Source of the DNA: Psammoneis japonica
Lineage: Eukaryota
Assembly (NCBI GenBank): GCA_008632985.1
Contig: QPGO01000038.1
Span: 149,939 to 213,938 of the forward strand
Direction: 5' to 3'
DNA length: 64,000 nt
The notes under the pieces are model-generated. The model worked only from the letters and a program-made list of their open reading frames with translations. It was not told where the DNA came from and made no database searches. The position numbers and the translations under genes were made by a program. Positions 1,761 through 24,700 of this stretch are shown piece after piece. Numbering within the stretch: position 1 is the stretch's first letter; every line of letters begins with the position of its first letter.

Positions 1761-3989
1761 CAGGTGTGCAAGATGTGTGCACAAGATGCAAGCAAGATGT
1801 GTGTCAAATGCATGTGAGGTGCTTGGGTGAGATGTGTGCAAAATGTTTGAAAGAAGCGCGTGGGATGTGCGCAAGATGCACACAAACAAAATGTGCATGA
1901 CACACAAGACACACGCAAGGTGTTTGTGAGATGTTTGCAAAACATTTGTGAAGAAGTGTGTGTGAGGTGTTTTGCCAGGTGTGTGCACTGAGCATGTCAA
2001 ATGTTTGAAAGACCATGCTGTGTGTGAGATGTGTGTGAAGTGTTTGAAAGATGTGCGTGAGATGTGCACGGGTGTTTGCAAAATGTGGTGATTGCAAGAT
2101 CATGTGTGCAAAACATTTGAAAGATGTGTGCAAAGCACTCAAGAGATGTGCATGAGATGTGTGTGTGAGGTGTTGGCAAGATGCTCACAATTGTGCAAGG
2201 TGGGTGCAGGGTGTTTGCAAGACATGTGTGAGTGCAAGACATGTGTGCAAGATGTGTGTGCAAGATGTGTGTGCAAGACGTGTCTGCAAGACGTGTGTGC
2301 AAGATGTGTGTGAAGTGCATGCAAAATGCGCAAGGCATCAGCAAGATGTTTGAGAGATGTGTGCAAAATGTTTGGACAATGTGTGTGTGAGATGTGCACA
2401 AGGCATTTGCAAAAAATTTGCATGAGATGTGTGTGTAAAATGTGTCCCAAGATGAGTGCAAGGTGTTTGCAAAATGTGTGCAAGGTGTTTGTGAGATGTT
2501 TGCAAGCAGGTGTGTGTGGCACGTGCACAAAACATTTGAGTGATGTGTGCAAAGTGTTTGCAAAATGTGTGTGAGATGTGTGTGGTGTGCAAGAGATGTG
2601 TGTGCCATGGGTGTGTGCCAGACCTGTGCAAGGCATTTGTGTGACAGGTGCAAAGCATGTGGGAGCTGCACAGGAGCTGTGCTCCAGACATGTGCAGGGC
2701 ATTTGTGAGATGTGTGCATGATTTGCAAGACAGCACATGCAAGATGTTTGCAAATTTTTCGTGAGATGTGTGCATGGTGTGTGTGATCTTTTTATGATGT
2801 GTTTGTGAGATGTGTGCAAGATGTGTGCAAGGTTCTTGCAAGATTTGGTGTTTGCAAGGTGTGCACAAAATGTTTGAAAGATGTGCGCGAGACATGCGCA
2901 TGATGCGAGTGAGGAGCTGGCAAGGTGTGTCTGTGTGACGCCAGCAAAATGTGTGCAAGCTGTGCACAAGCACATTGTGTGTGAGGTGTTTGTGAGATGT
3001 GTGCAAGATGTGTTTGTGAAATGTGTGGGAGATGTGTGCAAAATGTTTGGATGATGTGCACGAGATGCGCGTGAGATGTGTGCAAGGCATTTGCAAAATG
3101 TGCGCGACACGTGCACAAAATGTTTGAAAGATGTGCGCGGCATGCACAAAAGACGTGAGCAACACATGTGCAAGGTGTGCACAGCATGTGTGCCAGACCT
3201 GTGTGGGGCATTTGTGTTGTGTGTGTGAGGCACAGCAGAGATGTGCAGGAGCTGCACACCTGAAATGTGCATGGTGTGCAAGACATGTGTGTGCAAAACA
3301 TTGAAAGATGCACGCAAGGTGTGCCAGATGTGTTCAATGCATGTGTGTGGGGTGTTTGTGAGATGTGCACAGCATGTGCATGATTTGTTTGTGAGATGTT
3401 TTCCAGGTGTGTGTGTGAAATGTGTGCAGAGCATGTGTGGTCAGTGTGCAAGATGTGTGCAACATGCACACCAGATGTGTGCAAGGTGTGTGCAAGATGT
3501 GTGTGAAGTGGTGTGCGTGAGGTGTTTGCAAGATGTGCGTGAAATGTTTGAAAGGTTCGTGAGAGGCAATTGAAAGATGCGTGCACAAAGTGCATGTGAT
3601 GTGTTTGCACAATGTGCACAAGGTGTGTGCAGGACATTTGTGAGATGTGCGCACAATGTGTGTGCAAGGTGTTTGACAGATGTTTGTGAGATGTGCAAAA
3701 CATTTGAAAGATGTGTGCACAAGATGTGCGTGGGATGTGTGTGAGATGTGTGCAAAGTGTTTGTGAGGTGTTTGCAGTGCATGTGCAAGATGTGCACAAA
3801 TGTTTGAAACATGTGCACAAGATGTGTGTGGGGTGTTTGCAAGATGTGCGTGAGATGTTGGCCAACATTGTGTGAGGTGTGTGTGTTTGAGATGTGTGCA
3901 AAATGTGTGTGTCACATTTGCAAGATGTGTCAAGATGTGCACAAAACATTTGAAAGATGTGCGCAACATGTGTGCAAGGTGTGTGCGAG

Positions 3990-4830
3990 ATGTTTGAAGC
4001 ACAGCAGGAGTTTGGTCAACCCAACAAAGATTTTGCTCACTCAGAAGATTTGACCCCCACTGTCTCCATCTGCAAATGTCATTCAGCAGAGATCCATCTC
4101 ATCCTGTCTTGGGTGCACAGGGCAAGTCATGTGAGAAAAGCTTTTGGAAGGATGATGCGCTCAATCCCGCACATTGAGCATGTTTGGAGATCCATTGCGG
4201 GCATGTGAAAGAAGCAGAGGACAAAGCAACACATGCCCACAGCTGCAAAGAAAGACCAGAAGATCCAGGAAGAAAGGGCTTCATGCACAAGTGCCGCAGC
4301 TGTGTGAGAAGCTGCTCCTGTGGGAGCTGGGCATTTTTTGGTGCTGATGGAACAGAGAAGGTCAAGCACCCATCTCTCCTCCCAACCTTGGCTCTGCACC
4401 CACCCCAGAATGACCTCTGATGCTGAGCAAAGGAGGTCAAGGTGCAAGACATGGGGAAACCCACAGAGTCGGCAGCCCCCCATGTGCTCAGTTTTGTGCC
4501 ACTCTTTGGCCCTTGGCTGTTGTCTGAGAATGAAAAAAGGCAAAAGACTCTCATGGTGCAAGCATGTTGTGCCAACAAATTTTGTTGAGATGCTGATGAG
4601 TGCCGGGGTTCACACCAGAGAGTGCATCTGCAAATGTGGGGTTGGACACACTTTGCATGAGAAAGCTCCTGGAAAGCTGAGCACAAGCGCAATGACTGCA
4701 AAATGTGCCAACAAAGTTTGTGCCACAACTCTTTTGCAGGTGGCTCTTGCTTTGACAAATCACCTCACTCGTGCTCCATGCACACCAGACACACATTTCA
4801 CAAACACCTTGCACACGTCTGAGGCATTTG
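3990..4830. repeat. Macrosatellite complex block B, a diverged inverted paralog of block A (other copies ~16907-17750, ~22528-23368)
   Basis: B (+) aligns to the reverse complement of A ~440-1345, e.g. ggctgttgtctgagaatgaaaaa, gctgtgtgagaagctgctc, caaagcaacacatgc, ggtcaacccaacaaag. Confidence 0.9.
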
Positions 4831-7800
4831 AGACATGCAGGAGCTGTGTGGCTGACTTGTGTGGCGTGTTTGCAAGATGTGTGTGCAAGCAGTTTGCAGG
4901 GCACACATGTGCACAATGTTTGAAAGATGCACACGAGGTGCATGTGAGGTGCGCAAGATGTGCGCATGTGGCAAGAAGCACGTGTGTGAGGTGTTTGCCA
5001 GACATGTGTAAAATGTGTGTCATGTGTTTGCAAGACATGTGTGCAAGCTGTGTGCAAAACATTTGAAATGTTGCGTGCAAGAAGCGCCACAAATGTGTGC
5101 GAGGTGTTTGCAAAATGTGTGTGCAAGGTGTGTGCAAGGCATTTGTGAGATGTGTGCAATGTGTGTGCAAGGTGATTGCAAGATGTGTGCAGTGCATGTG
5201 TGTGAGGTGTTTGTGAGATGTTTGCCAGATGTGCGCAAAATGTGTGTGATCTGTTTTTGAGGTGTGCACAAGGTGCACACAAGATGTGCTCATGATGCAT
5301 GTGAGATGTTTTTGAGATGTGTGTGAAGTGGTGCATGTGAGGGGTTTACAAGATGTGCACAAGATGCACACAAAAAAGTTTGAAAGATGTGTGCAAGGTG
5401 CACAAGAGGTTTTTTCAAAATGTGCGCAAGGTGTGTGCGTTGGCACTTGTGAGATGTGTGCAATGTGTGTGTGTGAGGTGTTTGTGAGATGTTTGCGAGA
5501 TGACATGTGAGACACTCAAAAGATGTGTTGATGGTGTGCACAGCACATTTGGGAGGTGCAAGATGTGTGAAAAATGTTTGAAAAATGTGTGTGTGCATGT
5601 GTGAGATGTGTGCAAGGTGCTTTTGAGACATGTGCAAGGCATTGGCCAGAGGTGTGTGTGCAATGTTTGAAAGATGTGTGCAGAACATTTGGGAAACATG
5701 CGGGAGCTTTCTGCCAGACATGTGCAAAAGTGTTTGTGAGTTGCGCATCTGGTGTGCAAGGCACATGTGCGAAGTGCTTTTTCAAGAGCCCTGTGCAAAA
5801 GAGCTGTGACACAAACTCCCATTGGAGCATTTTGTGGTCATTGTGCTGAGCTTTCATCTGCTTTCTCATCCAATGCATGCCCAACCACTGGTTTGCAGAT
5901 GCACTCTCCATTGTGAACTCTGGCACTCATTTCCATCTCAACAACATTTGGTGGCATGGCATGTTTGCACAAAATTCTTTTGGCTGTTTTTCATTCTCAG
6001 ACAACAGCCAAGGACCAAAGAATGCATGTGAAGCTGACAACAACTCCAGCAAGCATGTGGACATTGACTGCAAGCAAGGTTTTCTGTGTCTTGCACCCCA
6101 GCTTCCTTTGCTCAGTGTCAGAGGTCACTCTGGGACAGGTGCAGAGCTGAGATGGAGAGACATGGGTGTTTGACCTCCTCTGTTCTCCAGCTTCAAAAGT
6201 GCCCAACTCCCCTGGGAGCAGCTTCTCACACAGCAATGGCGCTTGCATGCATCAGCCCTTTTCTTGGATTTTCTGGCATTCCTTTTGCAGCTGCAAGCAT
6301 GTGTTGCTTTGACTTCCACTTCTGCCATGCCAGCAAGGGATCCCCCCAAATGTGCTCAATGCACAAGATTGAGCATGCCTTTCCAAATGCTCTTGTTGCA
6401 CAACTCATTCATCAAACAAAAAGTGCGCCACAACACAGGCTTCACACTTGCACACTCCCTGTGCACCCAAAACAGGATGAGACAATTGTCTGCCAGATCA
6501 CCTTTGCAGATGAAAATGGCAGGCCCTTTCCATGATCTGTCCTTCAAAAAATCAGCAAAGCCTTTGTTGGGTTGACCCAAGAACTCCTGATGTGCTTGAA
6601 ACATGCTCTCATCATCGTCAATTTTCTCAACACAAAAGAAGCTGCCAAGAGCATGGCACAGCATTTTGTTTGTCTTTCAACACAGGTCCAGCCAAGGAGG
6701 GCATGCCATGCACCAGTGTGCCATGGTGTGCTGAGCTGGACAAATTGCAGCACTTCTGGAGCATGACGGAGGCAGTCTTGGGACCCATGCCAGCAGGGAG
6801 TGTGGAGCAATTTTTTGGAATTTTGCGCGCAGAAATGTGCGTGCAAAACACACGATGGATGACAAAAACAATTGGTCACAGATCAGCACTGTGAGCTCCC
6901 ACCTGGGGCTGGAGTGCATCATTTCCATGTGTGATCTTCCAAAAAATTGTTCCAGACTCACTGTTTTGCAAACCCCAGATGTTTTGTTTGCAGCAAAATT
7001 GCAAGACCATCAATGCTCCAGGTGTGCAAGGTGTGTGCAAGATGTGTGCACAAGATGCAAGCAAGATGTGTGTCAAATGCATGTGAGGTGCTTGGGTGAG
7101 ATGTGTGCAAAATGTTTGAAAGATGTGTGCGGGATGTGCGCAAGATGCACACAAACAAAATGTGCATGACACACAAGACATGCACAAGGTGTTTGTGAGA
7201 TGTTTGCAAAACGTTTGTGAAGAAGTGTGTGTGAGGTGTTTTGCCAGGTGTGTGCACTGAGCATGTCAAATGTTTGAAAGACCATGCTGTGTGTGAGATG
7301 TGTGTGAAGTGTTTGAAAGATGTGCGTGAGATGTGCACAGGTGTTTGCAAAATGTGGTGATTGCAAGATCATGTGTGCAAAACATTTGAAAGATGTGCAC
7401 AAAGCACTCAAGAGATGTGCATGAGATGTGTGTGTGAGGTGTTGGCAGATGCTCACAATTGTGCAAGGTGAGTGCAGGGTGTTTGCAAGACATGTGTGCA
7501 AGATGTGTGTGAAGTGCGCGCAAAATGCGCAAGGCATCAGCAAGATGTTTGAGAGATGTGTGCAAAATGTTTGGACAATGTGTGTGTGTGAGATGTGCAC
7601 AAGGCATTTGCAAAATTTGCATGAGATGTGTGTGTGAAATGTGTCCCAAGATGAGTGCAAGGTGTTTGCAAAATGTGTGCAAGGTGTTTGTGAGATGTTT
7701 GCAAGCAGGTGTGTGTGTCACGTGCACAAAACATTTGAGTGATGTGTGCAAAGTGTTTGCAAAATGTGTGTGAGATGTGTGTGGTGTGCAAGAGATGTGT

Positions 7801-8336
7801 GTGCCATGGGTGTGTGCCAGACCTGCACAAGGCATTTGTGTGGCAGGTGCAAAGCATGTGGGAGCTGCGCAGGAGCTGTGCTCCAGACACACAGGAAACA
7901 AGAATCCACGGAATCACACGGAATGTGTGCGCGACTCTGTCACGAAAGGCCTCAAAACCGACTCTGTCACAAAAGGCCTCAAAACGGAACATGAATGACA
8001 TGGTGCAAAATGAAAAAAGCCTCATCAAAATCCGCATCACATTCCAACGTGTGCACTCATTCCACACCCAAGACGCAATTTGCACATTCCGTTTGCCATT
8101 TCGTTTGTCAGAAAGAGGCCACTCATTTTAAATTCCATTTGCTGTTCCTTTTGCTGCACTCCGTTTGTGGATTCCTTTCACTCAACCAATGACACGGAAT
8201 GCAACAGCTTCACTTTCCGTGTTGTGGTCGGAATGTGGCATGTCATCTCTAGAGCTTGTGATGTGGAATGCTTTGCGGAGTCAAGCGAAACTCCAAAACG
8301 GGATTGTTGTGCTGCTGCACTTCCATGCACAGCGAG

Positions 8337-8522
8337 TGACAGAATGCCAAAGGTCAATGATGACAGAGGCATGAAAGCTCCCCAAGCACTGGGACTGTGA
8401 CAACATGAGCACCAGCAGATGAGAAAGTGAGAGGCAGATCTCAGAGAGATCTGCTCGTCTGTCTAAATGGTTCGGTCATCATCCATGTGCAGTCTGTTCA
8501 TTGTGCGATGGGCAGACTGACA
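8337..8522 (-). repeat. 3' LTR of the Copia element (186 bp)
   Basis: tgacaga...ctgaca; aligns end to end with 13969-14155; followed on + by ccctcccct (PPT complement). Confidence 0.95.
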
Positions 8523-8689
8523 CCCTCCCCTGATCTGCAATGTCTCAAAAACAGAAGACAGTGCAGATCAAAACAAGAACAGGGATGATGTGAACAGAGC
8601 GACCAGAAAGAGGACACCAAATGTGTCCAAGCCCAATGTGCATCAAATGACGGGGCAACATGCAGCAGGGAGGCCACCCAGGAAAAATG

Positions 8690-11274
8690 TCAACGGCAGT
8701 GTCCCATCATGCGTCGAGCATGGCAAGCATGGAGCACCCACCCAAGAGCCTTGGTGAGGTCATCACTGGGGTTGATGATGCCAGGGATGTGTCCAGTGAC
8801 AATCTTGCCTGCTTCCTTCCATTCTTGAATCGTGAAGAACTGAGTCTCAATGTGGTGTGAACGCTTGGTTGGAATCGAATGATTGATGATCTTGATGGCC
8901 AATTTGTTGTCAACATGCAAAGGGGTTGGCTTCATTTGGGAACAACCAAGGTCATGCAGCACATGGCGAAGGCAAAGAACATGCTTGGTGGTGGCACCAG
9001 CAGCACAGAATTCTGCTTCTGTAGAACTCGCAGCTGTCACCGACTGCGTCTTGCAACAAAAGGAGACAGCAGCACCAGCTGACATGCAAGCATGTCCCAT
9101 CGTGGAATGTCGATTGCGAAGATCATTTCCGTGTGCAGCATCAAGGAAGGCAACAAGTTGATGGTCATGCTCAGGAGCAGGGAATGATGGGAGAGACGGG
9201 TCGGGACTCAAGCGTTCATGCGGACAGGCAGGGAGGCTCGGGTCACGTTTAGATTTCTTGCAGTTCAATTCCCAATGTTTGATGCGTCGGAGACACTTGC
9301 ATGCATCCTTGAGTGCATTGCAGTGCACCGCTGCAGGACAAGTGGAGAACTTGGAAAGGGCAGTGATGGCACAGCCAATGTCAAGTCGACAGACAACACA
9401 TGCATGCAATGGCTCACCAAGGAGGGCACGGCATCCAAACCCAGCAGCTTGTTGTAGCTCCGCATGTTCCAGTGTGCCTTCAGCAGACCAATGGCAGTGT
9501 AAAGATCGCGAACAGAATCCACCAGAATTGGAGTCGCCTTAAAATCATCAAGCAGTTCTTCATCACTTGGTGTGGACCAACCATGTGAGAGGCAAACACG
9601 GTCGATGCAATTGTGGATGGCGACACCAATCAAGTCATCATGCTGATGGATGTCCACACCATTGAATTCCTCCAGGAGGCCAAGGCACTTGAAAGGTGGA
9701 GCAGTTTCTGAGTCCAATTGAAGGGCTTTGCCAATCCTGTCATAGATTGTCTTGGCAATGGACTCTTCGGGGCAAGCAATGGCGAAGTCATCGACCTGGC
9801 AAAGGAGCAAAATTTTGTGTCCTTCAAATGCAGCAGAGCAGACACATTTGTCATGAGTGGTGTTCCGAAACAAAAGATTCACATCAGATGAGATGCCATC
9901 AATGTGATTCTCCCAGAGCATGCCGGCTTCTGGGTGTCCTTGAAGAGCATGTTGCACAGGGAGGACCACACTCATGTCCAACTCCTTTCCAAATCGAGAC
10001 TTGTGCCAAGTCGCATGTGCATCATCAATGGCAACGTGTGCAGGATGTGACAGGCGGGGAGAGTGGGCACAGGCATCTCGGGCATCACCGCCATGTGCCG
10101 GACAACCCATTGTAGCTGCCAGGGCAAACAACATCCGTTGGACAGGTTGCTCAACACAGGAGGAGCATGTTGAATGGAGACGATGGAGAACAGATGCAGC
10201 ATGAGGGGAGCCATCGCAACACTGATGAGAGTGCCACGTGCCGTCATGTTTGAGGTCATGTTGCCAGTGTGGTCTCAGTGCAACTGCATCCTTTGGACGT
10301 TTGACAGGAGCACCAAACATGCCCAACTCATGAAACTGGTCAAGTTGTTTAAATTCGCCCGCACGCCACTCAGGCCAAGCACCCAATTGCTTGAGGCAAT
10401 GGCGAGTGAAAGTGCCCAAGGCTTGTTCCTCTGGGGCAATTGCACGGGAGGAGATTGCACGGATGTTGACGACACCATTGTCGCAGTCAACACACACAGG
10501 TGGCAGGACGTCATCATCGTCAACAGCTTCAAAATCAGTGTCGGGATGGCGCACCGCAGCAATGGCACGTGTGTCGGCCTGTGCAAGTTCTGGGACATGT
10601 TCATTGTCAGGGTCCGGGGCAGGGGAGAAGATGTTGTGCTCCATCAGAGCATGTTGGAGAGCTTGAGAGTCCAAGCGACGTTCTGGCATGACTTCAATTT
10701 CAAAATGTGTCTTGCCAGACTCATGCAACTGCTGGAAACACTTGACAGCATCGTCACGGGTAAAAACTGGTTGATGATCAATCGATGCGATGTGCGCGCC
10801 TTTGATCTTGCTGCGGGTCACCTTCAAGTTCGAGAAGAGATGAGCAGTGGGGGAACCATGTTGAATGTCCGAGACAAAAACACATTGGTGCAGATCATCC
10901 ACAGCTGAAGAGAAGCCATGAGTGGGATCCGTGAATGGTCCTTTCATGATGCGTGTGATGGTCTTGGCAAAAGGGTTGCCATGGAAGTGGAGTTCATCCA
11001 CAGCAGTCTCTTCAGTGTCAGCAGGGAGGGCATCACCAGCCTGAGTGCATTGCAAATGAACAACATTCGGGGGAATAGAGTCGTGGGGTAAATCATTCAT
11101 CCCCTCATCACATCTGATGTGCTTGGCCAGCTCAACACGCGATGTCTTGGTGTCGCACCACAAAATGTTCTTGGTGGCATCCGGAAGGCATCCCAAGAAA
11201 ATCCCTTTGCGGGAGACGGTCCGGAATTTCGCTGGACGGTGATTCGCCCCATTGAAAATCTGGAGACTGGACAA
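8690..11274 (-). pseudogene. pol: Copia pol remnant: integrase C-terminal (SH3-like) region, PDZ-like insert, reverse transcriptase, RNase H; frameshift near 9400-9490
   Basis: SRKGIFLG, ALQGHPEAG, LLCQVDDF (RT catalytic), DAAHGND, SSTEAEF, PLHVDN, NPSDDLTKALG (Copia RNase H). Confidence 0.93.
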
Positions 11275-13830
11275 AAGTGCCAGGCAGAGAATCAGATGGT
11301 CCTTGATGAGGTGGCAACAAACCTTGTGGTCCTTGAAATTCAGAGGCTTGCATGGCCACTTCGCACTTCAAGAATTGACAAAAACGTGCATGGAAGCCCT
11401 CGATGTGTGGGTTGTCATTCAAGACAGGACACTCATGGAACAAGTGTTCTTCAGAACAAACAAGGCATGGTTTCTTGGAGGCCTCTGTGGGGGTGACCTT
11501 GAGTTTGTGTGCCGAAGTGGAGCAAACATGATGAAGAAGATGATCTTCATCTGCAGAAGGTACATCAAGGTCATTCAATTCAGCACAGAGGGAGTCAAAG
11601 GTGTCCTCGGGGGAGTGATCAACATCGGCAGCGTCTGGCAGCTCGTCCGCATCCTCTGCAATGGGAGGGACATCCGGGACAGTCAAGGAATTGACATCGG
11701 CAGTTGTGTGATGTGTGCCCCCTGGGTGTTGATCCCATGCACGGCATGGATTGCAAGGAGTTGTGCGAGTTGCAAGAGATGGACCATCCGACTGATGAAG
11801 GAAGTCAGAAAGGGTCTCAACAATCTGTGCATCCACGCACTTCTTGAGCACAGCAGGGGACTTCCTTTCATCTCCAGCAGTGCAGGACAAGAACTTGGAG
11901 CACCCAGTGTTCTTGACAAAAACAGTCATCTCTCGAGAGTCATCCAACGTAGAGTCCGCATTGAAGACATGAGCACGCAGCTGCAGAAAATCCTTGAAAC
12001 GCAAGTGACAGTCCGTCAAGGATAGATTGCCTTGAACAGGGCAGGAATCTGCCAACCCAGCAGCCTTGTGATCAAAAGCTGGGTGGTTCTCGTGGACAAT
12101 TTGCTTGAGAGCATTGCAGCCATTGCCACAGCATGAGGCAACAATCCGATGACACTTGCCGTTCTTGGGGAACATGTCCAACTTGGAAAGGATCTTGTGA
12201 AGGGAACTCTGTGCTTCTTTGCAATGAACACACATTCATTGGGGTGAGTCATTGTCTTTGCCGTTGCCAATCTCAAAACCCTTCTCACCACCGTGGTCCT
12301 TGGCGAAGCACCACAAAGGATGCATGTGGTGTCCCGAGTCAAAGGAGTGATGTTGAAAATTTTGGTGCCATGCACACATCCCAGCAGGAGAATTGTCATG
12401 GCAGATCGGAGGTTCTCTGAACAGCATCTTCTGGTCAGGGGGCGAGCTCATGACAAACAGGGTGCCATCATTGAGAATGATGCGGTCAGATGCATCAACA
12501 CAGTGGCAGAATCCATGGTCATGAGGGACTGGAGAGCTCTTCAGGGTGACGGCACCACTGTCTTTGCAGTCGCAGCATGTGCGAACATCAGGAGGCAGGG
12601 TGTTGGGGCTGAAGAGACATTTGGATGCTGTGGAAGTTGCAGGAGTTCCAGAGGTCTTGCCACAGAGGCAGCAGAAGGCGGAGCGTGGCTTGACACAAAC
12701 TTGTTGAGGGGGTGATTGAGGATGGATCTACGTGCTGCGGTCTAATTTAAAACAGCTCGCATTTCCCGCACTTCACCGTGTCATTTTGACCTGCCTCGGA
12801 ACACCCCCGAACACTTGTGCGTTCGTCAAACCCTCACAGGGGCTGTTAGATGGCTGTGGGAGCTGCACATTTGGTGCTTCAAATGCCACTTGTCGACCTG
12901 TGCCCTGTTGTCAGGTCAAAAAAACCGCTGATTTTCGTTAAAATCGGGCTTCTCATGGGAGACCAGCGATGACTTTCCGGGAAATGCCGACAAGTGGCAT
13001 TTGACTGGCTGCGGACATGTCTACAGTCGTCAAGGTAAAAGTCGCGCATGGCCACACCTGTCGTTTGAGCATTCTAGGGTGTCTGGAGAACGGACAATGT
13101 TCGACCGATCGCTGAAATTTTTTTTGCGAATGCGCGCGCATTTGCTGCGATGCATCCGGGTCATTTTTGTAAAAATTGTGAGCTCCCAAAAAACAGACCA
13201 CAGCACGTAGATCCATCCTTGAGTCATTCACACCAATTGTTGCAGGTCCGGAACTGGTCGCAGATGATGGTGCAGGCTGTGGGTTCTGCGGGCAGGGCAT
13301 GAGGGAGAACTCCTTCCAATCCTCACAGCCCCACATCATGTTGGGGTCAATGTCAATGTGGTGTGCAGAGATGACAATGCATTGATTTGATCGTGGCTCC
13401 AGAGATTGGTCTTGATGATCGACAAGAGAGATGCGGGCATCATGCGGATTGCATGAGGCCTGGCAGAGTCAATGATGCGGAGTGCAGCTTCACCCACAAT
13501 CATCTTGATGGGCTGCATGTCCACAGGATGAACCGCGCAAGGTGGGAACGCTGTGTTGACGAGGTGATCTTGAAATGTGTCAACAAAATCTTTCTTCGGT
13601 TGAGCATGTTCTGGATCATCAAAGAACGGGTCCAGACCAAACATTGAATCCGCACACATCTTGTTCAAGGTGGTGTGGAAATGAGGTGTCGTTGCATGTT
13701 CTTGAAATTCACAACAGATCTCTGCAATGGACGTCGGAGCGGCCTTTGTGAGGTCAGGAGACACCATGGTTTCACTTGGTGAGGGCATTTTTGGTCATGT
13801 GCACGCAGAAATCTGGTGTGTTTCTACGAT
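11250..13830 (-). pseudogene. gag: Copia gag remnant, frameshifted and interrupted by a MITE
   Basis: Zinc knuckle CLVCSEEHLFHEC (Cx2Cx3Hx4C) in ORF 11132..12235; lies between the 5' LTR and pol; ends near a GATTTTC (PDFQ) stretch. The 5' limit is approximate. Confidence 0.75.
12720..13218. mobile_element. MITE / non-autonomous TIR element (499 bp) nested in Copia gag
   Basis: 24-bp TIR ggatggatctacgtgctg(c/t)ggtct; 4-bp TSD TTGA (12716-12719, 13219-13222); retains TpA and CpG, unlike its flanks. Confidence 0.9.
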
Positions 13831-13968
13831 CGTGAAAAATGCAGGGAAAGCAAGAAAAAATTTGTTGTTGGAACAGACGATGAGGCTTGCTCGGTTGGCT
13901 CACAAAACAAATGAATTGAGATGGAAAGCTTGGCACAGAGTTCTGTGGCACAGTGCAAGGCCACAACC

Positions 13969-14155
13969 TGACAGAGTGCCGAAGGTCAACAATGACAGAG
14001 GTGTGAAAGACTCCCTGAGCACCAGGACTGTGATGACACGAGTGCCAGCAGATGAGAAAGTGAGAGGCAGATCTCAGAGAGATCTGCTCATCTGTCCAAG
14101 TGGTCCGGTCATCATCCGCGTGCAGTCTGTTCATCGTGCGACAGGCAGACTGACA
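13969..14155 (-). repeat. 5' LTR of the Copia element (187 bp)
   Basis: Aligns with 8337-8522. The adjacent minus-strand GGTTGTGG resembles the GGTTATGG half-tRNA-iMet primer-binding site of copia-type elements, with TA->TG. Confidence 0.95.
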
Positions 14156-17100
14156 GCAAGAACTCCTGCTCCACCCACGCTGGTGCTCTGCCTGCATTTG
14201 CACGACCGGTCACTTTGCTGCACCACTCAGCCGAATCTCAGAACAATGCATTCCTTCTTTTGATTGTCTTGGGTGCCCAATGGATGACAAGGGGCACTTC
14301 AACCTTTCCCAAACATGAGCAACATGCGACAAAGTCAAAAGTGAGCAACGCGTTCAATGTGACAGAAAAAGCAAAATGAAGCTTGCGCTTGCGGGCCGTT
14401 GATGGATGCAGCTGTCCAGACGTCTCTTTTGCCAAAAACTAGAGTGGTCGATGATGCGGTGCCACTCTCTCAGCAGCAGAGCAGCCGCACTTGGAACCAG
14501 AACCCTCTGGACTCTGGAAACAAACCCCAACAGCAAAAAGAGAGAAGAAAATGTGAGTGCAAGTGACCTTTGAAGTTCTGCACAATCACATCATAACTTG
14601 CCATCGTGTGTGCTGCAATTGTCACAAATCATGACACTCACTCATCCCATTGTTCTTCCCATTGTTTGCCGTTGTTGCTTCAGATGCACTTTGCCACACT
14701 GGTGTGTTGCGTTTTATGAGAGGAACGAGAAGAAGTGCGAGAAAATGTGGCTGCAATGCGAGCCCTCTCCTCTGGCATAAATCGTTGCACCTTCTACAGA
14801 GCAATCAAAGTCACAGCAGAATTCAATGATGTCTTTCCACGTGCTGTTAAACAAATGGCCATTGAATGTTTTCTTCTTTGTTTTTGATGCAATTGCTTCA
14901 CTTGCATGATTTGAATTGTTTGTTTTTAAAGTCCTCAATTTGTCAACAACATGTTGCAACATCAAAACAATGACAAAATGTGTGATCATTTTAGGATTCT
15001 CATTCCAATGACAATTGAACATAAAAACGTCATTGCTGCACCATCTTCTTTGCTGCACAACGAGTTAAAACAAAAACAAAGACATGCATGTCCTGCATGA
15101 CATTTTCCACGATCGAAGATGACAACAACATGCAGCCATGACGACAATGCGCGGTCTTACAGCATTGCAGCATCAAACATCTCACCATCATTCTTGATGC
15201 TGTGGTCGCTTGAATCATCACAGATGGACAAACAGAGAGCACCAAACAATGGAGTGGTGACGTTGGCCAATGTGGACAAAGTTCGTTGCAATTTTTCGCC
15301 TCAACACATGCTCTGTGCATGTTGTTAAAAACAAAATCCGTTCACCTCAGTCTGTGCACGGAATGAAGCAGTCGTTCCAGTTTCAAGTTCATGTTCTTCA
15401 CAAAAACGGAGTGCACTTGTCTTGGTGGTCAGAACGGAGTGTGACCATTGCACTCCGATTGCTGACACTTCCATCTTGAATGTGAGGGCATGTTCCTTAG
15501 AAAAGTCCAAAACAGAGCACGAAAAAAGGCCTTGTTTTTTGTGGAACAAACAAACGGAATGAGGAGAAAAAGCACACATTCCGTGTGATTCCATGGGTTC
15601 TTGTTTCCTGTGCATGTGCAGGGCATTTTTGTGAGATGTGTGCATGATTTGCAAGACAGTGCATGCAAGATGTTTGCAAATTTTTTGTGAGATGTGTGCA
15701 TGGTGTGTGTGATCTTTTTGTGACATGTGTGTGAGATGTGTGCAAGGTTCTTGCAAGATTTGGTGTTTGCAAGGTGCACACAAAATGTTTGAAAGATGTG
15801 CGCGAGACATGCGCATGACGTGAGTGAGGAGCTGGCAAGGTGTGTCTGTGTGACGCCAGCAAAATGTGTGCAAGCTGTGCACAAGCACATTGTGTGTGAG
15901 GTGTTTGTGAGATGTGTGCAAGATGTGTTTGTGAAATGTGTGGGAGATGTGTGCAAAATGTTTGGATGATGTGCACGAGATGCGCGTGAGATGTGTGCAA
16001 GGCATTTGCAAAATGTGTGCGACACGTGCACAAAATGTTTGAAAGATGTGCGCGGCACGCACAAAAGACGTGAGCAACACATGTGCAAGGTGTGCACAGC
16101 ATGTGTGCCAGACCTGTGTGGGGCATTTGGGTTGTGTGTGTGAGGCACAGCAGAGATGTGCAGGAGCTGCGCACCTGAAATGTGCATGGCATGCAAGACA
16201 TGTGTGTGCAAAACATTGAAAGATGCACGCAAGGTGTGCCAGATGTGTTCAATGCATGTGTGTGGGGTGTTTGTGAGATGTGCACAGCATGTGCATGATT
16301 TGTTTGCGAGATGTTTGCCAGGTGTGTGTGTGAAATGTGTGCAGAGCATGTGTGGTCAGCGTGCAAGATGTGTGCAACATGCGCGCCAGATGTGTGCAAG
16401 ATGTGTGCAAGATGTGTGTGAAGTGGTGTGTGTGAGGTGTTTGCAAGATGTGCATGAAATGTTTGAAAGGTTCGTGAGAGGCAATTGAAAGATGCGCGCA
16501 CAAAGTGCACGCGATGTGTTTGCACAATGTGCACAAGGTGTGTGCAGGACATTTGTGAGATGTGCACAATGTGTGTGCAAGGTGTTTGACAGATGTTTGT
16601 GAGATGTGCAAAACGTTTGAAATGTGTGTGCACAAGATGTGCATGGGATGTGTGTGAGATGCTGTGTGCAAAGTGTTTGTGAGTTGTTTGCAGCGCATGT
16701 GCAAGATGTGCGCAAATGTTTGAAACATGTGCACAAGATGTGTGTGGGGTGTTTGTAAGATGTGCGTGAGATGTTGGCCAACATTGTGTGAGGTGTGTGT
16801 GTTTGAGATGTGTGCAAAATGTGTGTGCCACATTTGCAAGATGTGTCAAGATGTGCACAAAACATTTGAAAGATGTGCGCAACATGTGTGCAAGGTGTGT
16901 GCAAGATGTTTGAAGCACAGCAGGAGTTTGGTCAACCCAACAAAGATTTTGCTCACTCAGAAGATTTGTCCCCCACTGTCTCCATCTGCAAATGTCATTC
17001 AGCAGAGATCCATCTCATCCTGTCTTGGGTGCACAGGGCAAGTCATGTGAGAAAAGCTTTTGGAAGGATGGCGCGCTCAATCCCGCACATTGAGCATGTT

Positions 17101-18321
17101 TGGAGATCCATTGCGGGCATGTGAAAGAAGCAGAGGACAAAGCAACACATGCCCACAGCTGCAAAGAAAGACCAGAAGATCCAGGAAGAAAGGGCTTCAT
17201 GCACAAGTGCCGCAGCTGTGTGAGAAGCTGCTCCTGTGGGAGCTGGGCATTTTTTGGTGCTGATGGAACAGAGAAGGTCAAGCACCCATCTCTCCTCCCA
17301 ACCTTGGTTCTGCACCCACCCCAGAATGACCTCTGATGCTGAGCAAAGGAGGTCAAGGTGCAAGACATGGGGAAACCCACAGAGTCGGCAGCCCCCCATG
17401 TGCTCAGCTTTGTGCCACTCTTTGGCCCTTGGCTGTTGTCTGAGAATGAAAAAAGGCAAAAGACTCTCATGGTGCAAGCATGTTGTGCCATCAAATTTTG
17501 TTGAGATGCTGATGAGTGCCGGGGTTCACACCAGAGAGTGCATCTGCAAATGTGGGGTTGGACACACGTTGCATGAGAAAGCTCCTGGAAAGCTGAGCAC
17601 AAGCGCAATGACTGCAAAATGTGCCAACAAAGTTTGTGCCACAACTCTTTTGCAGGTGGCTCTTGCTTTGACAAATCACCTCACTCATGCTCCATGCACA
17701 CCAGACACACATTTCACAAACACCTTGCACACATCTGAGGCATTTGAGACATGCAGAAGCTGTGTGGCTGACTTGTGTGGCGTGTTTGCAAGATGTGTGT
17801 GCAAGCAGTTTGCAGGGCACACATGTGCACAATGTTTGAAAGATGCACACGAGGTGCGTGTGAGGTGCGCAAGATGTGTGCATGTGCCAAGAAGCGCGTG
17901 TGCAAAAAGCACGTGTGTGAGGTGTTTGTGAGATGTTTGCCAGATGTGTGTAAAATGTGTGTCATGTGTTTGCAAGACATGTGTGCAAGCTTTGTGCAAA
18001 ATGTTTGGCAGATGGGTGCAAAACATTTGAAATGTTGCGTGCAAGAAGTGCCACAAATGTGTGCAAGGTGTTTGCAAAATGTGTGTGCAAGGTGTGTGCA
18101 AGGCATTTGTGAGATGTGTGCAATGTGTGTGCAAGGTGATTGCAAGATGTGTGCAGTGCACGTGTGAGGTGTTTTTGAGATGTTTGCCAGATGTGCGCAA
18201 AATGTGTGTGATCTGTTTTTGAGGTGTGCACAAGGTGCACACAAGATGTGCTCATGATGTGTGTGAGATGTTTTTGAGATGTGTGTGAAGTGGTGCATGT
18301 GAGGGGTTTGCAAGATGTGCA

Positions 18322-18718
18322 GACGTGTTCCAGCTCTAGGTGGGACCTCGTACTACTGAACTGTGACAAAATTATTTTTTATCATCCGTCGTATGTTTCG
18401 CACGTACATTTCTACGTGTTCTATTATAAAAAATTGTTCCACACTGCCTGTTTTGCGAAGCCAAAGGCTTTCTGTTATCTGCACTTATGTCAATAAAAAT
18501 GCGCTGGGTATATTCTTTAATGTCTAAAGAATATACCCGGGCATACTGTAAAGAATGTACTTAAAGTGTGGAGGAGGAGATACGTTCGCAAAATTTGCCT
18601 CTTTTTCTGTTGGCGATCATTCATACATCCATTGCTTAATAATTTTACTACGGAGCTCGCACGTAGAATTCTACGGGCCCAATGTCACAAAAAGTCCCAC
18701 CTAGGACTGGAACCCGTC
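18322..18718. mobile_element. Young AT-rich MITE (~400 bp) inserted into the macrosatellite
   Basis: Imperfect TIR gacgtgttccagctctaggtgggac / gacgggttccagtcctaggtgggac. Absent from the equivalent site (aagatgtgcacaag) in other units. Flanked by TGCA on both sides; the site is palindromic, so a TSD of 0, 2 or 4 bp fits equally. Rich in TpA and CpG. Confidence 0.92.
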
Positions 18719-21700
18719 TGCACAAGATGCACACAAAAAAGTTTGAAAGATGTGTGCAAGGTGCACAAGAGGTTTTTGCAAAATGTGCGCAAGGTGTGTG
18801 CGTTGGCACTTGTGAGATGTGTGCAATGTGTGTGTGTGAGGTGTTTGTGAGATGTTTGCGAGATGACATGTGAGACACTCAAAAGATGTGTTGATGGTGT
18901 GCGCAGCACATTTGGGAGGTGCAAGATGTGTGAAAAATGTTTGAAAAATGTGTGTGTGCATGTGTGAGATGTGTGCAAGGTGCTTTTGAGACATGTGCAA
19001 GGCATTGGCCAGAGGTGTGCGTGCAATGTTTGAAAGATGTGTGCAGAACATTTGGGAAACATGCGGGAGCTTTCTGCCAGACATGTGCAAAAGTGTTTGT
19101 GAGCTGCGCATCTGGTGCACAAGGCACATGTGTGAAGTGCTTTTTCAAGAGCCCTGTGCAAAAGAGCTGTGACACAAACTCCCGTTGGAGCATTTTGTGG
19201 TCATTGTGCTGAGCTTTCATCTGCTTTCTCATCCAATGCATGCCCAACCACTGATTTGCAGATGCACTCTCCATTGTGAACTTTGATGCTCACTTCCATC
19301 TCAACAACATTTGGTGGCATGGCATGTTTGCACAAAATTCTTTTGGCTGTTTTTCATTCTCAGACAACAGCCAAGGACCAAAGAATGCATGTGAAGCTGA
19401 CAACAACTCCAGCAAGCATGTGGACATTGACTGCAAGCAAGGTTTTCTGTGTCTTGCACCCCAGCTTCCTTTGCTCAGTGTCAGAGGTCACTCTGGGACA
19501 GGTGCAGAGCTGAGATGGAGAGACATGGGTGTTTGACCTCCTCTGTTCTCCAGCTTCAAAAGTGCCCAACTCCCCTGGGAGCAGCTTCTCACACAGCAAT
19601 GGCGCTTGCATGCATCAGCCCTTTTCTTGGATTTTCTGGCATTCCTTTTGCAGCTGAAAGCATGTGTTGCTTTGACTTCCACTTCTGCCATGCCAGCAAG
19701 GGATCCCCCCAAATGTGCTCAATGCACAAGATTGAGCATGCCTTTCCAAATGCTCTTGTTGCACAACTCATTCATCAAACAAAAAGTGCACCACATCACA
19801 GGCTTTACACTTGCACACTCCCTGTGCACCCAAAACAGGATGAGACAATTGTCTGCCAGATCACCTTTGCAGATGAAAATGGCAGGCCCTTTCCATGATC
19901 TGTCCTTCAAAAAATCAGCAAAGCCTTTGTTGGGTTGACCCAAGAACTCCTGATGTGCTTGAAACATGCTCTCATCATCGTCAATTTTCTCCAACACAAA
20001 AGAAGCTGCCAAGAGCATGGCACAGCATTTTGTTTGTCTTTCAACACAGGTCCAGCCAAGGAGGGCATGCTGTGCACCAGTGTGCCATGGTGTGCTGAGC
20101 TGGACAAATTGCAGCACTTCTGGAGCGTGACGGAGGCAGTCTTGGGACCCATGCCAGCAGGGAGTGTGGAGCAATTTTTTGGAATTTTGCACGCAGAAAT
20201 GTGCGCGCAAAACACACGATGGATGACAAAAACAATTGAGTCACAGATCAGCACTGTGAGCTCCCACCTGGGGCTGGAGTGCATCATTTCCATGTGTGAT
20301 CTTCCAAAAAATTGTTCCAGACTCACTGTTTTGCAAAACCCCAGATGTTTTGTTTGCAGCAAAATTGCAAGACCATCAATGCTCCAGGTGTGCAAGGTGT
20401 GTGCAAGATGTGTGCACAGGATGCAAGCAAGATGTGTGTCAAATGCGTGTGAGGTGCTTGGGTGAGATGCACGCAAAATGTTTGAAAGATGCGTGCGGGA
20501 TGTGCGCAAGATGCGCACAGACAAAATGTGCATGACACACAAGACATGCACAAGGTGTTTGTGAGATGTTTGCAAAACGTTTGTGAAGAAGTGTGTGTGA
20601 GGTGTTTTGCCAGGTGTGTGCACTGAGCATGTCAAATGTTTGAAAGACCATGCTGTGTGTGAGATGTGTGTGAAGTGTTTGAAAGATGTGCGTGAGATGT
20701 GCACGGGTGTTTGCAAAATGTGGTGATTGCAAGATCATGTGTGCAAAACATTTGAAAGATGTGTGCAAAGCACTCAAGAGATGTGCATGAGATGTGTGTG
20801 TGAGGTGTTGGCAGATGCTCACAATTGTGCAAGGTGGGTGCAGGGTGTTTGCAAGACATGTGTGAGTGCAAGACGTGTGTGCAAGATGTGTGTGAAGTGC
20901 GCGCACAATGCGCAAGGCATCAGCAAGATGTTTGAGAGATGTGTGCAAAATGTTTGGACAATGTGTGTGTGAGATGTGCACAAGGCATTTGCAAAATTTA
21001 CGTGAGATGTGTGTGTGTGAAATGTGTCCCAAGATGAGTGCAAGGTGTTTGCAAAATGTTTGCAAGGTGTTTGTGAGATGTTTGCAAGCAGGTGTGTGTG
21101 GCACGTGCACAAAACATTTGAGTGATGTGTGCAAAGTGTTTGCAAAATGTGTGTGAGATGTGTGTGGTGTGCAAGAGATGTGTGTGCCATGGGTGTGTGC
21201 CAGACCTGTGCAAGGCATTTGTGTGGCAGGTGCAAAACATGTGGGAGCTGTGCAGGAGCTGTGCTCCAGACATGTGCAGGGCATTTGTGAGATGTGTGCA
21301 TGATTTGCAAGACAGTGCATGCAAGATGTTTGCAAATTTTTTGTGAGATGTGTGCACGGTGTGTGTGATCTTTTTATGATGTGTTTGTGAGATGTGTGAA
21401 AGGTTCTTGCGAGATTTGGTGTTTGCAAGGTGTGCACAAAATGTTTGAAAGATGTGCGCGAGACATTCGCATGACGTGAGTGAGGAGCTGGCAAGGTGTG
21501 TCTGTGTGACACCAGCAAAATGTGTGCAAGCTGTGCACAAGCACATTGTGTGTGAGGTGTTTGTGAGATGTGTGCAAGATGTGTTTGTGAAATGTGTGGG
21601 AGATGTGTGCAAAATGTTTGGATGATGTGCACGAGATGCGCGTGAGATGTGTGCAAGGCATTTGCAAAATGTGCGCGACACGTGCACAAAATGTTTGAAA

Positions 21701-24700
21701 GATGTGCGCGGCATGCACAAAAGACGTGAGCAACACATGTGCAAGGTGTGCACAGCATGTGTGCCAGACCTGTGTGGGGCATTTGTGTTGTGTGTGTGAG
21801 GCACAGCAGAGATGTGCAGGAGCTGCGCACCTGAAATGTGCATGGTGTGCAAGACATGTGTGTGCAAAACATTGAAAGATGCACGCAAGGTGTGCCAGAT
21901 GTGTTCAATGCATGTGTGTGGGGTGTTTGTGAGATGTGCACAGCATGTGCATGATTTGTTTGTGAGATGTTTTCCTGGTGTGTGTGTGAAATGTGTGCAG
22001 AGCATGTGTGGTCAGTGTGCAAGATGTGTGCAACATGCACACCAGATGTGTGCAAGGTGTGTGCAAGATGTGTGTGAAGTGGTGTGCGTGAGGTGTTTGC
22101 AAGATGTGCATGAAATGTTTGAAAGGTTCGTGAGAGGCAATTGAAAGATGCGTGCACAAAGTGCATGTGATGTGTTTGCACAATGTGCACAAGGTGTGTG
22201 CAGGACATTTGTGAGATGTGCACACAATGTGTGTGCAAGGTGTTTGACAGATGTTTGTGAGATGTGCGTGGGATGTGTGTGAGATGTGTGCAAAGTGTTT
22301 GTGAGGTGTTTGCAGTGCATGTGCAAGATGTGCACAAATGTTTGAAACATGTGCACAAGATGTGTGTGGGGTGTTTGTGAGATGTGCGTGAGATGTTGGC
22401 CAACATTGTGTGAGGTGTGTGTGTTTGAGATGTGTGCAAAATGTGTGTGTCACATTTGCAAGATGTGTCAAGATGTGCACAAAACATTTGAAAGATGTGT
22501 GCAACATGTGTGCAAGGTGTGTGCGAGATGTTTCAAGCACAGCAGGAGTTTGGTCAACCCAACAAAGATTTTGCTCACTCAGAGATTTGACCCCCACTGT
22601 CTCCATCTGCAAATGTCATTCAGCAGAGATCCATCTCATCCTGTCTTGGGTGCACAGGGCAAGTCATGTGAGAAAAGCTTTTGGAAGGATGATGCGCTCA
22701 ATCCCGCACATTGAGCATGTTTGGAGATCCATTGCGGGCATGTGAAAGAAGTGGAGGACGACAAAGCAACACATGCCCACAGCTGCAAAGAAAGACCAGA
22801 AGATCCAGGAAGAAAGGGCTTCATGCACAAGTGCCGCAGCTGTGTGAGAAGCTGCTCCTGCGGGAGCTGGGCATTTTTGGTGCTGCTTGAACAGAGAAGG
22901 TCAAGCACCCATCTCTCCTCCCAACCTTGGCTCTGCACCCACCCCAGAACGACCTCTGATGATGAGCAAAGGAGGTCAAGGTGCAAGACATGGGGAACCA
23001 CAGTCGGCAGCCCCCCATGTGCTCAGCTTTGTGCCACTCTTTGGCCCTTGGCTGTTGTCTGAGAATGAAAAAAGGCAAAAGACTCTCATGGTGCAAGCAT
23101 GTTGTGCCATCAAATTTTGTTGAGATGCTGATGAGTGCCGGGTTTACACTGGAGAGTGCATCTGCAAATGTGGGGTTGGACAAACTTTGCATGAGAAAGC
23201 TCCTGGAAAGCTGAGCACAAGCACAATGACCACAAAATGTGTCAACAAAGTTTGTGCCACAACTCTTTTGCAGGTGGCTCTTGCTTTGACAAATCACCTC
23301 ACTCGTGCTCCACACACACCAGACACACATTTCACAAACACCTTGCACACATCTGAGGCATTTGAAACATGCAGAAGCTGTGTGGCTGACTTGTGTGGTG
23401 TGTTTGCAAGATGTGTGTGCAAGCAGTTTGCAGGGCACACATGTGCACAATGTTTGAAAGATGCACACGAGGTGCATGTGAGGTGTGCAAGATGTGTGCA
23501 TGTGCCAAGAAGCGCGTGTGTGAGGTGTTTGCGAGATGTTTGCCAGATGTGTGTAAAACGTGTGTCATGTGTTTGCAAGACATGTGGCAAGCTTTGTGCA
23601 AAATGTTTGACAGATGGGTGCAAAACATTTGAAATGTTGCGTGCAAGAAGCACCACAAATGTTGCGAGGTGTTTGCAAATGTGTGTGCAAGGCATTTGTG
23701 AGATGTGCACAATGTGTGTGCAAGGTGATTACAAGATGTGTGCAGTGCATGTGTGTGAGGTGTTTGTGAGACATTTGCCAGATGTGCGCAAAATGTGTGT
23801 GATCTGTTTTTGAGGTGTGCACAAGGCACGCACAAGATGTGCTCATGATGTGTGTGAGATGTTTTTGAGATGTGTGTGAAGTGGGGCATGTGAGGGGTTT
23901 ACAAGATGTGCACAAGATGCGCACAAAAAATTTGAAAGATGTGTGCAAGGTGTGCAAGAGGTTTTTGCAAAATGTGCACAAGGTGTGCGCGTTGGCACTT
24001 GTGAGATGTGTGCAATGTGTGTGTGAGGTGTTTGTGAGCTGTTTGCGAGATGACATGTGAAACACTCAAAAGATGTGTTGATGATGTGCGCAGCACATTT
24101 GTGAGATGCAAGATGTGTGAAAAATGTTTGAAAAATGTGTGTGTGCATGTGTGAGATGTGTGCAAGGTGCTTGTGAGACATGTGCAAGGCATTGGCCAGA
24201 GGTGTGTGTGCAATGTTTGAAAGATGTGCGCAGAACATTTGGGAAACATGCGGGAGCTTTCTGCCAGACATGTGCAAAAAAGTGTTTGTGAGTTGTGCAT
24301 CTGGTGTGCAAGGCACATGTGTGAAGTGCTTTTTCATGAGCCCTGTGCAAAAGAGCTGTGGCACAAACTTCATTGGAGCATTTTGTGGTCATTGTGCTGA
24401 GCTTTCATCTGCTTTCTCATCCAATGCATGCCCAACCACTGATTTGCAGATGCACTCTCCATTGTGAACCCTGGCACTCATTTCCATCTCAACAACATTT
24501 GATGGCATGAACGTGGGTCAGGTGGCCAAAGAATGCTGCGAGCCCAAAGAAAAAGACAGACACCAAAAAACAGATGCCATTTGTGCCTCCATCGGTGCAC
24601 TGAGCACGGCAGGTGGCACATCTCATGGGTGGATGGTGGCTGCATCAAAGTGATACACACAGGGATGAGTTATTATTGTCGTTGCCATCGTCTGTTGCCA

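Follow-up and report, generated by a model that had tools for sequence, protein, structure and literature searches.

The two long terminal repeats (LTRs) of an old retrotransposon from Psammoneis japonica differ almost exclusively by transitions in CA, TG, CG and TA dinucleotides. The element is located at positions 8332-14160, target-site duplication (TSD) included, of a 64,000-nucleotide stretch of contig QPGO01000038.1, which was analyzed as a whole and is referred to as the window. With moderate confidence, the divergence of this LTR pair is attributed to two processes directed at repeats, decay of CpG and conversion of TpA to CpA or TpG. The LTRs and the TSD are arranged as follows.

8332-8336, unstranded: left copy of the TSD, GCGAG, sharing 4/5 letters with the copy at 14156-14160; the mismatch is CG versus CA.
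8337-8522, minus strand: LTR-A, the 3' LTR, 186 nt with TG..CA ends, containing 21 CA, 21 TG, 3 CG and 1 TA.
13969-14155, minus strand: LTR-B, the 5' LTR, 187 nt with TG..CA ends, containing 20 CA, 19 TG, 7 CG and 0 TA.
14156-14160, unstranded: right copy of the TSD, GCAAG, adjoining LTR-B.

The LTRs are direct repeats with an identity of 86.6%. Their global alignment contains 25 differing columns, comprising 24 transitions, no transversions and one single-base indel (an additional A at 14010). Seven sites are reciprocal, with CA in one LTR and TG in the other; in LTR-A these swapped sites lie at 8358-9, 8370-1, 8383-4, 8390-1, 8401-2, 8410-1 and 8509-10. Six further sites show CG opposite CA or TG (three CA/CG and three TG/CG), and at one site TA in LTR-A (8464-5) corresponds to CA in LTR-B (14097-8). 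Three transitions fall outside such pyrimidine-purine (YR) steps (8344 A/G, 8467 A/G and 8472 T/C); at 8472 a C is present in LTR-B and in other copies, so the C to T change is placed in LTR-A. The YR steps common to both LTRs are 15 TG, 15 CA and 2 CG, with no TA. A preliminary description of this DNA had reported a divergence nearly restricted to these four dinucleotides, and the formal alignment reproduced its counts exactly (7 reciprocal, 6 CG, 1 TA and 3 other differences, 1 indel, 0 transversions); 21 of the 24 changed positions lie in YR steps.

When 24 random transitions were placed on LTR-A in 20,000 trials, seven or more reciprocal pairs were obtained in none of them (mean 0.68, maximum 6), and YR-to-YR pairs held on average 11.9 and never more than 20 of the changed positions, compared with the 21 observed. 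Two control repeat pairs from the window's normal zones (28193/28907 and 62541/62858) show no reciprocal CA/TG pairs, and their ratios of transitions to transversions are near parity (39:38 and 26:21, respectively). A reciprocal CA/TG pair implies that the ancestral dinucleotide was CG or TA and that, once the element had inserted, it was changed on one strand in one LTR and on the opposite strand in the other. The same reasoning, a self-complementary ancestor struck on opposite strands, had been put forward in the preliminary description and is sound. The TSD mismatch is, as also described there, of the same type. One insertion event is argued for because the 5-bp copies match apart from a CpG change. 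Contigs of a sequencing run, X1, that join 8325/8326 to 14153/14159 represent paralogous empty sites of the DNA transposon into which the element was inserted. Since the target reads GTGAG or GCAAG in these paralogs and one copy keeps CG, the ancestral TSD site was CG. Within the window, a repeat search found no further copies of the LTR, and the LTR core had 0 exact matches among metagenome contigs.

According to the explanation favored here, two transition processes, each specific to a sequence context, would have struck each LTR independently after insertion and on either strand. The first would be the change of CpG to TpG or CpA, an ordinary decay of the 5-methylcytosine type, and the second the change of TpA to CpA or TpG, an A:T to G:C transition at TpA. 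Both would act on silenced repeats and both would end in CA/TG. A CG or TA site converted on opposite strands would then be left as CA in one LTR and as TG in the other.

The dinucleotide composition of the window was compared between genic and repeat zones by the ratio of observed to expected counts (o/e). Genic zones have a TA o/e of 0.60-0.63 and a CG o/e of 1.0-1.07, and the repeat zones overall range from 0.011 to 0.117 for TA and from 0.15 to 0.83 for CG, with CA and TG at 1.5-3 times expectation. The LTR element itself has a TA o/e of 0.075 and a CG o/e of 0.52, and the arms of its host transposon have values of 0.06 and 0.12 for TA and 0.83 and 0.58 for CG. The respective TA and CG values are 0.011-0.017 and 0.23-0.35 in a macrosatellite, 0.039 and 0.15 in a repeat block at 39.8-44.0 kb, and 0.034 and 0.29 in a repeat block at 54.3-60.9 kb. 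The TA-depleted zones are sharply delimited, with borders that fall on repeat ends. Together they comprise 34.8 kb and contain only 83 residual TA, 64 of them in TAA/TTA contexts. Relative to the normal zones, TTAA is retained at 0.38, CTAA at 0.20 and GTAA at 0.18, but ATAC has dropped to 0 (versus 164 in normal zones), ATAT to 0 (versus 99) and GTAC to 1 (versus 95). This neighbor preference of the TA loss looks enzyme-like; residual TAA could also have been newly made from CAA. Among the CG contexts, GCGC is not depleted (98 versus 77 in normal zones). The TA- and CG-poor block at 39830-43990 is without an internal repeat of at least 60 nt, and the block at 54.3-60.9 kb, zone 3, harbors a second old direct-repeat pair (56419-57462 and 58874-59920), which is 77% alike and shows 81 transversions.

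The direction of change can be read from the coding part of the element, for which two segments of the polymerase (pol) are recognizable.

8699-9484, minus strand: RNase H-like C-terminal part of pol, located by tblastn with homologs; its frame differs from that of the reverse transcriptase.
9565-11244, minus strand: C-terminal (SH3-like) part of the integrase and reverse transcriptase (RT, RVT_2), with ~50% identity to relatives.

In comparison to its relatives, the pol open reading frame is poor in Tyr (0.4% versus ~3.5%) and rich in His (7.3% versus ~4%) and Cys (4.0% versus ~1.8%). Conserved columns were evaluated for both segments. The RT test comprised 194 columns from 53 homolog segments, as 6 of an initial 60 were excluded for having fewer than 200 aligned amino acids and one (P0142) for being Tyr-poor; the RNase H test comprised 114 columns from 43 segments of 54 matches. 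None of the eight conserved Tyr residues of the RT is kept (4 His encoded by CAY, 3 Cys encoded by TGY, 1 Leu), and the same holds for the eight of RNase H (5 Cys, 2 His, 1 Phe). Thus 14 of the 16 conserved Tyr are now His or Cys. Conserved Arg of the RT is retained in 7 of 15 columns, the rest being 4 His, 2 Cys, 1 Trp and 1 Lys, and the majority of the other RT residues are retained at 75-100%. An RT that retains no conserved Tyr could not have produced this copy; the Tyr losses therefore postdate its last working ancestor.

The replaced columns, 38 in the RT and 32 in RNase H, were read together with their neighboring bases. Single-step changes from TA to CA/TG explain 21 of them and single-step changes from CG to CA/TG another 15; the rest are 7 other transitions, 14 columns explained by transversion only, 1 ambiguous column and 12 that need at least two steps. 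The TA set is not limited to Tyr codons: it includes three of three Thr to Ala, one Lys to Glu and one Ile to Val replacement (each an A to G change after T) as well as one Leu TTA to Ser TCA and one Leu CTA to Pro CCA. On the sense strand 13 changes are TA to TG and 8 are TA to CA, which shows that both strands were converted. The loss is also more complete than that of CpG, as 0/16 Tyr codons are kept versus 12/22 Arg CGN codons (10 converted, p ~0.45).

Direct witnesses of the former state come from other copies of the repeats and from two elements of different age, for which the following features are relevant.

7890-8331, unstranded: left arm of the host DNA transposon, TA o/e 0.06, with a 41-bp terminal inverted repeat at 7890-7930.
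14161-15612, unstranded: right arm of the host DNA transposon, TA o/e 0.12, with the terminal inverted repeat at 15572-15612.
18321-18718: young insertion of 398 bp resembling a miniature inverted-repeat transposable element (MITE), with a TGCA 4-bp duplication and imperfect inverted ends of ~25 bp.
1534-1654, 6794-6913 and 20158-20278, minus strand: old fragments of the young MITE's family, one per satellite unit, with ~78% identity to the young copy.

Of the words sampled from the window, a fraction of 0.48 occurs in run X1. The contigs of this run that match the stretch at 80% likeness or more number 2,723, and 390 of them reach 99% or more. The comparison of copies covers 40 program-selected rows of 1,644 difference rows, none of which is at the seven swapped LTR sites. 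In these rows, other copies keep TA at five positions where the window has CA (8109, 8124 and 8294 in the left arm of the host transposon; 14310 and 14336 in its right arm) and at five where it has TG (14266, 14391 and 14456 in the right arm; 9116 and 12523). In addition to these 10 changes from TA to CA/TG there are 8 rows with CG in the others and CA/TG in the window, 4 rows in which the window keeps CG, 14 other transitions, 2 transversions and 2 rows that form one double change. The latter concerns 13800-13801, which is CA in nearly all other copies (27-29 contigs) and TG in the window's copy; because two transitions are combined in one copy, this suggests a passage through CG or TA.

The young MITE contains 33 TA (o/e 0.95) and has a CG o/e of 1.1, although it lies inside TA-free satellite; its empty site is found in satellite copy 1 at ~5359. 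Nine TA steps of the young MITE correspond to 4 CA and 5 TG in the old fragments of its family, with no TA kept, and the three satellite units share the same outcome at these sites. Of the CG steps, 3/6 are kept in the old fragments. The conversion of TA to CA/TG is therefore demonstrated in the coding part of the element, in the host transposon and in the MITE family, and CpG decay is demonstrated in the LTRs and the TSD. Taken together, the data show a process of transitions that affects either strand, is limited to repeats and has the two self-complementary YR steps as its targets.

For the LTR pair itself, the share of CpG decay has to be weighed. An o/e of 1 would correspond to 11.1 CG and 11.5 TA per LTR. 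If all seven swapped sites had been CG, the LTR would have been CpG-rich and TA-poor at insertion and the pair would be silent on TpA. Several points favor this alternative and weigh against a TpA contribution. A model with CpG decay only gives a good maximum-likelihood fit to the LTR alone (p = 0.76, N = 21 initial CpG, o/e ~1.9). CG is still present in one LTR at six sites and in both at two, but TA at just one, and CG is also the ancestral state of the TSD site. For the repeat pair of zone 3 (21 reciprocal CA/TG sites, 20 CG versus CA/TG, 1 shared CG, 0 TA), CpG decay is a complete explanation by itself, given a CpG density of ~6%, which is ordinary. In the satellite, a comparison of the three copies gives 67 columns with CG-witnessed patterns versus 9 with TA-witnessed ones, a parsimony count that is confounded by parallel CpG decay and says little on TA, which was lost before the units were copied. 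The seven swapped LTR sites are without a direct witness of their ancestral state; the three paralogous LTR fragments listed have either CA or TG at each site that they span. The 40 rows compared are not a random sample, and many of them are without any contig that carries the window's own letter, so run X1 does not provide a site-by-site confirmation of the window's copy.

However, CpG decay alone requires ~21 CpG in 186 nt and a decay of 0.76, as opposed to 0.45 at the Arg codons of the same element (P ~0.008). It would also leave the ancestral LTR with ~1 TA instead of the ~7-11 expected, while the coding part lost all of its conserved Tyr codons. With p between 0.45 and 0.6, the two CG/CG sites and the six sites with CG in one LTR predict 1.1-2.5 reciprocal sites versus 7 observed; the probability of at least seven is 0.0006 at p = 0.45 and 0.03 at p = 0.6. 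A joint fit to the LTRs and the Arg codons that allows an extra source of reciprocal sites gives a likelihood ratio of 5.75 and ~5.7 extra sites, with a one-sided P of 0.008 that assumes equal CpG decay in LTRs and coding region and is based on small numbers. Conversion of all of ~7-11 TA sites would yield ~3.5-5.7 reciprocal sites. CpG decay alone is thus a strained explanation of the LTR pair and is considered unlikely. Most likely the swapped sites are a mixture, with ~1-3 derived from CG and the rest from TA, and we infer that some LTR sites were TA.

A technical origin of the pattern was considered as well. Modified bases, 5-methylcytosine at CpG and modified A or T at TpA, might have been miscalled as transitions during base calling or assembly. 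The limited share of the window's words in run X1 is in line with such an artefact, as is the disagreement of all contigs with the window at many of the 40 rows. Random miscalls, however, would not give three satellite copies the same outcome at nine sites, and context-determined ones would not make two LTRs differ; a mixture of plus- and minus-strand miscalls should also give TA and CG consensus calls. The 398-bp MITE with its 33 TA and CG o/e of 1.1 lies in the midst of a TA-free block, which speaks against miscalling. TA-bearing contigs include empty-site paralogs, which represent other loci, and the 390 of 2,723 contigs mentioned above, at least 99% alike, speak against an artefact as well. 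The Tyr to His/Cys pattern is also found in metagenome contigs of other projects, and the element carries frameshifts, transversions and an unrecognizable 5' half, which are signs of ordinary decay. An artefact is therefore regarded as very improbable.

Even less credit is given to changes that preceded integration, such as ADAR-like A-to-I editing of RNA or cDNA, or to an origin of the LTRs from two recombined elements. ADARs prefer a 5' U, which the 5' T preference seen here resembles, and the family has many diverged copies (2,723 contigs). Pre-integration changes, however, enter both LTRs alike and leave no difference between them. Moreover, both strands were converted (13 versus 8), and repeats that are not retroelements, i.e. 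the satellite, the DNA transposon and the MITE fragments, were converted too. ADAR-type editing of retroelement RNA was rejected on these three grounds, and recombination is opposed by a TSD that matches apart from one CpG change. We infer that the two processes acted on DNA after insertion and not on RNA. As biased gene conversion has no dinucleotide context, it was discarded as an explanation.

Related RT sequences were examined at 80 loci from metagenome contigs; the pattern used to find them called for Tyr or Phe at one position of a motif and thus disfavored fully converted copies. Most of these loci have a TA o/e of 0.55-0.83. The lowest values are found in L064 (0.23), L075 (0.29), L062 (0.33) and L052 (0.37), in which the eight conserved Tyr columns contain Tyr, His and Cys in numbers of 3/3/1, 2/2/2, 1/1/2 and 2/2/2, respectively; L027, with a TA o/e of 0.47, has 2/1/4. 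Pooling of the 56 loci that rank highest in TA o/e gives 335 Tyr, 25 His and 16 Cys out of 424. Because partly TA-depleted copia relatives from metagenomes show losses of Tyr to His/Cys, the TA-loss process is not confined to the genome of the window. Among the loci of these relatives that are at least 4,500 nt long, a single repeat pair was found (L003), with 5 changes and none related to TA; this pair may be an overlap of assembly ends.

The CpG component is ordinary and resembles the decay of methylated transposons, in which CG changes to TG/CA on either strand in repeats only; the element has a CpG o/e of 0.52, and older repeats have values of 0.15-0.35. Loss of TA, however, is beyond the reach of CpG decay, and in this case it has gone further than the loss of CG. 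Hoguin et al. 2023 (PMC9998398) describe methylation of transposable elements in diatoms and present DNMT4 of diatoms as related to RID and its function as not known.

The component that destroys TpA and makes CA/TG is the reverse of repeat-induced point mutation (RIP). In ascomycete fungi RIP changes C to T, mainly at CpA, by means of RID/DIM-2. Common features are the restriction to transitions, the action on both strands, the sharp-edged repeat blocks beside untouched genes and the sparing of a short young insert. The direction differs, since RIP makes TpA from CpA/TpG whereas here TpA is destroyed and CpA/TpG are made (o/e ~1.5-3). The fungal direction was therefore rejected, with TA o/e at 0.01-0.12, CA/TG o/e at 1.5-3 and polarized changes from TA to CA/TG. 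CpG decay and RIP are both based on cytosine deamination and both lower the G+C content. To our knowledge, a process that is confined to repeats, changes A:T to G:C and erases nearly all TpA is absent from the known repeat-mutation systems, and no description of a TpA-directed repeat mutation was found in the open-access literature that was searched.

It is tentatively proposed that diatoms, or if not all of them then this lineage together with some benthic relatives seen in metagenomes, possess a repeat-directed hypermutation that mirrors RIP. In such a system every TpA in silenced repeats would be changed to CpA/TpG on both strands beside CpG decay, with TAA/TTA partly spared and ATAC, ATAT and GTAC wiped out, and a DNA adenine deaminase or a thymine-modifying enzyme would be aimed at heterochromatin. 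Neither enzyme is known to us as a genome defence. As to the chemistry, an enzyme-like base change on silenced chromatin, either adenine deamination at TpA or thymine oxidation, is the preferred but rather doubtful proposal; 5-formyluracil is an oxidized thymine that pairs with G. Dinoflagellates carry 5-hydroxymethyluracil at TpA, but an origin of this type was dropped with regard to the organism, as the genes of the window are diatom-like.

Biased repair of T:G mismatches is an alternative chemistry. Very short patch repair is the only known route we can name that leads from cytosine methylation to a change of TA to CA/TG. According to PMC5337935, which cites Bhagwat and McClelland 1992, this repair is connected with the scarcity of CTAG in E. 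coli and Salmonella: the correction of T:G to C:G that serves deaminated 5-methylcytosine erodes legitimate T and turns CTAG into CCAG/CTGG. The system is bacterial and bound to a CTWGG-like motif, whereas here all TA contexts are affected except, in part, TAA/TTA. CpG decay also occurs at the same places here, which efficient T:G repair should prevent.

The distortion of the age estimate is considerable. The Kimura two-parameter distance (K2P) between the LTRs is 0.149 over all sites (24/186 differ), 0.305 in YR steps (21/92) and 0.033 outside of them (3/94). Raw LTR divergence overstates the age ~4.5-fold in relation to the non-YR sites, which bears out the warning on LTR dating given in the preliminary description. 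The extent of this bias depends on the starting number of CG and TA sites in the LTR. Dating by LTR divergence with a single rate is being used on diatom genomes, as in a preprint (bioRxiv 10.1101/2025.10.24.684338).

If the proposed process is real, it would indicate that a major algal group has a DNA-modifying or repair activity not described so far, and it would provide a testable phenotype for the DNMT4/RID-like genes of diatoms or for other enzymes. With TpA lost, transposon genes would be left with one of the three stop codons and with no Tyr codons. Repeats free of TA contain very long false open reading frames in all six frames, as only TGA stops are left, and can mislead gene callers. 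In the element (8300-14200, six frames), 30 stop-free stretches of at least 80 aa were found on both strands, because TAA and TAG are almost absent.

The element is classified, from its sequence, as an old and defective retrotransposon of the Ty1/copia type on the minus strand of a diatom nuclear genome. Its remaining parts are as follows.

8523-8531, minus strand: putative polypurine tract, AGGGGAGGG on the minus strand, a run of 9 purines adjoining the 3' LTR, assigned by position only.
11245-13949, minus strand: 5' half, the expected place of gag, protease and integrase core; no similarity was found, and it is TA-poor like the remainder.
13950-13968, minus strand: expected place of the primer-binding site next to the 5' LTR; none was recognized.

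The RVT_2 match has an E value of 4.3e-7 and 30.2 bits, slightly below the Pfam cut-off of 31.6. The pol sequence has 1,720 relatives, the best with 50% identity and an E value of 2.9e-167. Their domain order, gag_pre-integrase, SH3_retrovirus and RVT_2, is that of copia elements, and in the window's element the SH3-like integrase end likewise sits upstream of the RT. A frameshift near 9485-9565 separates the RNase H part from the RT part. In 11100-13968, tblastn with nine full-length relatives detected no similarity to gag, protease or the integrase catalytic core at E values up to 0.05, and a profile of the relatives' N-terminal parts gave no significant match there (none below an E value of 0.26; best E value 0.3). 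A primer-binding site at 13950-13968 was not recognized by eye, no comparison with tRNAs having been made. This copy is thus defective or rearranged.

The element resembles the CoDi elements, the Ty1/copia-like retrotransposons of diatoms, as portrayed by Maumus et al. 2009 (PMC2806351), in its short LTRs with TG/CA ends, the 5-bp target duplication, the diatom host and pol relatives that have gag_pre-integrase, the SH3-like integrase part and RVT_2 in copia order. The LTR pairs of CoDi elements are given there as 94-100% identical. By comparison, the element described here is dead, its LTRs are 86.6% identical and its 5' half is unrecognizable.

The retrotransposon is part of a nested arrangement. 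It is inserted in the host DNA transposon, which is 1.9 kb long and has 41-bp inverted ends that are 95% alike, and this transposon interrupts copy 2 of the macrosatellite. The macrosatellite has a unit of ~5.2-5.6 kb and fills 1-24.5 kb of the window (1-7889, 15613-18320 and 18719-24509). Over ungapped columns, its three copies agree at 97-98%. It consists mostly of TG/CA-rich subrepeats of 11/33 bp, with a strong GC skew of up to 0.47 in parts.

The normal zones of the window contain several genes. A P4-type phospholipid flippase (P4-ATPase) with few long exons is encoded at 32578-37673 on the minus strand; its best named relatives are from diatoms (Attheya, Fistulifera, Nitzschia, Epithemia and others), with at most 57% identity, which places the host among the diatoms but far from any of the matches. 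A gene for an FG-GAP repeat protein is located at 47740-49044 on the plus strand and one for a DUF3598 protein at 49754-50752 on the minus strand. The open reading frame at 28193-29614, also in a normal zone, is internally duplicated and consists of two 706-bp units that are 88.6% alike.

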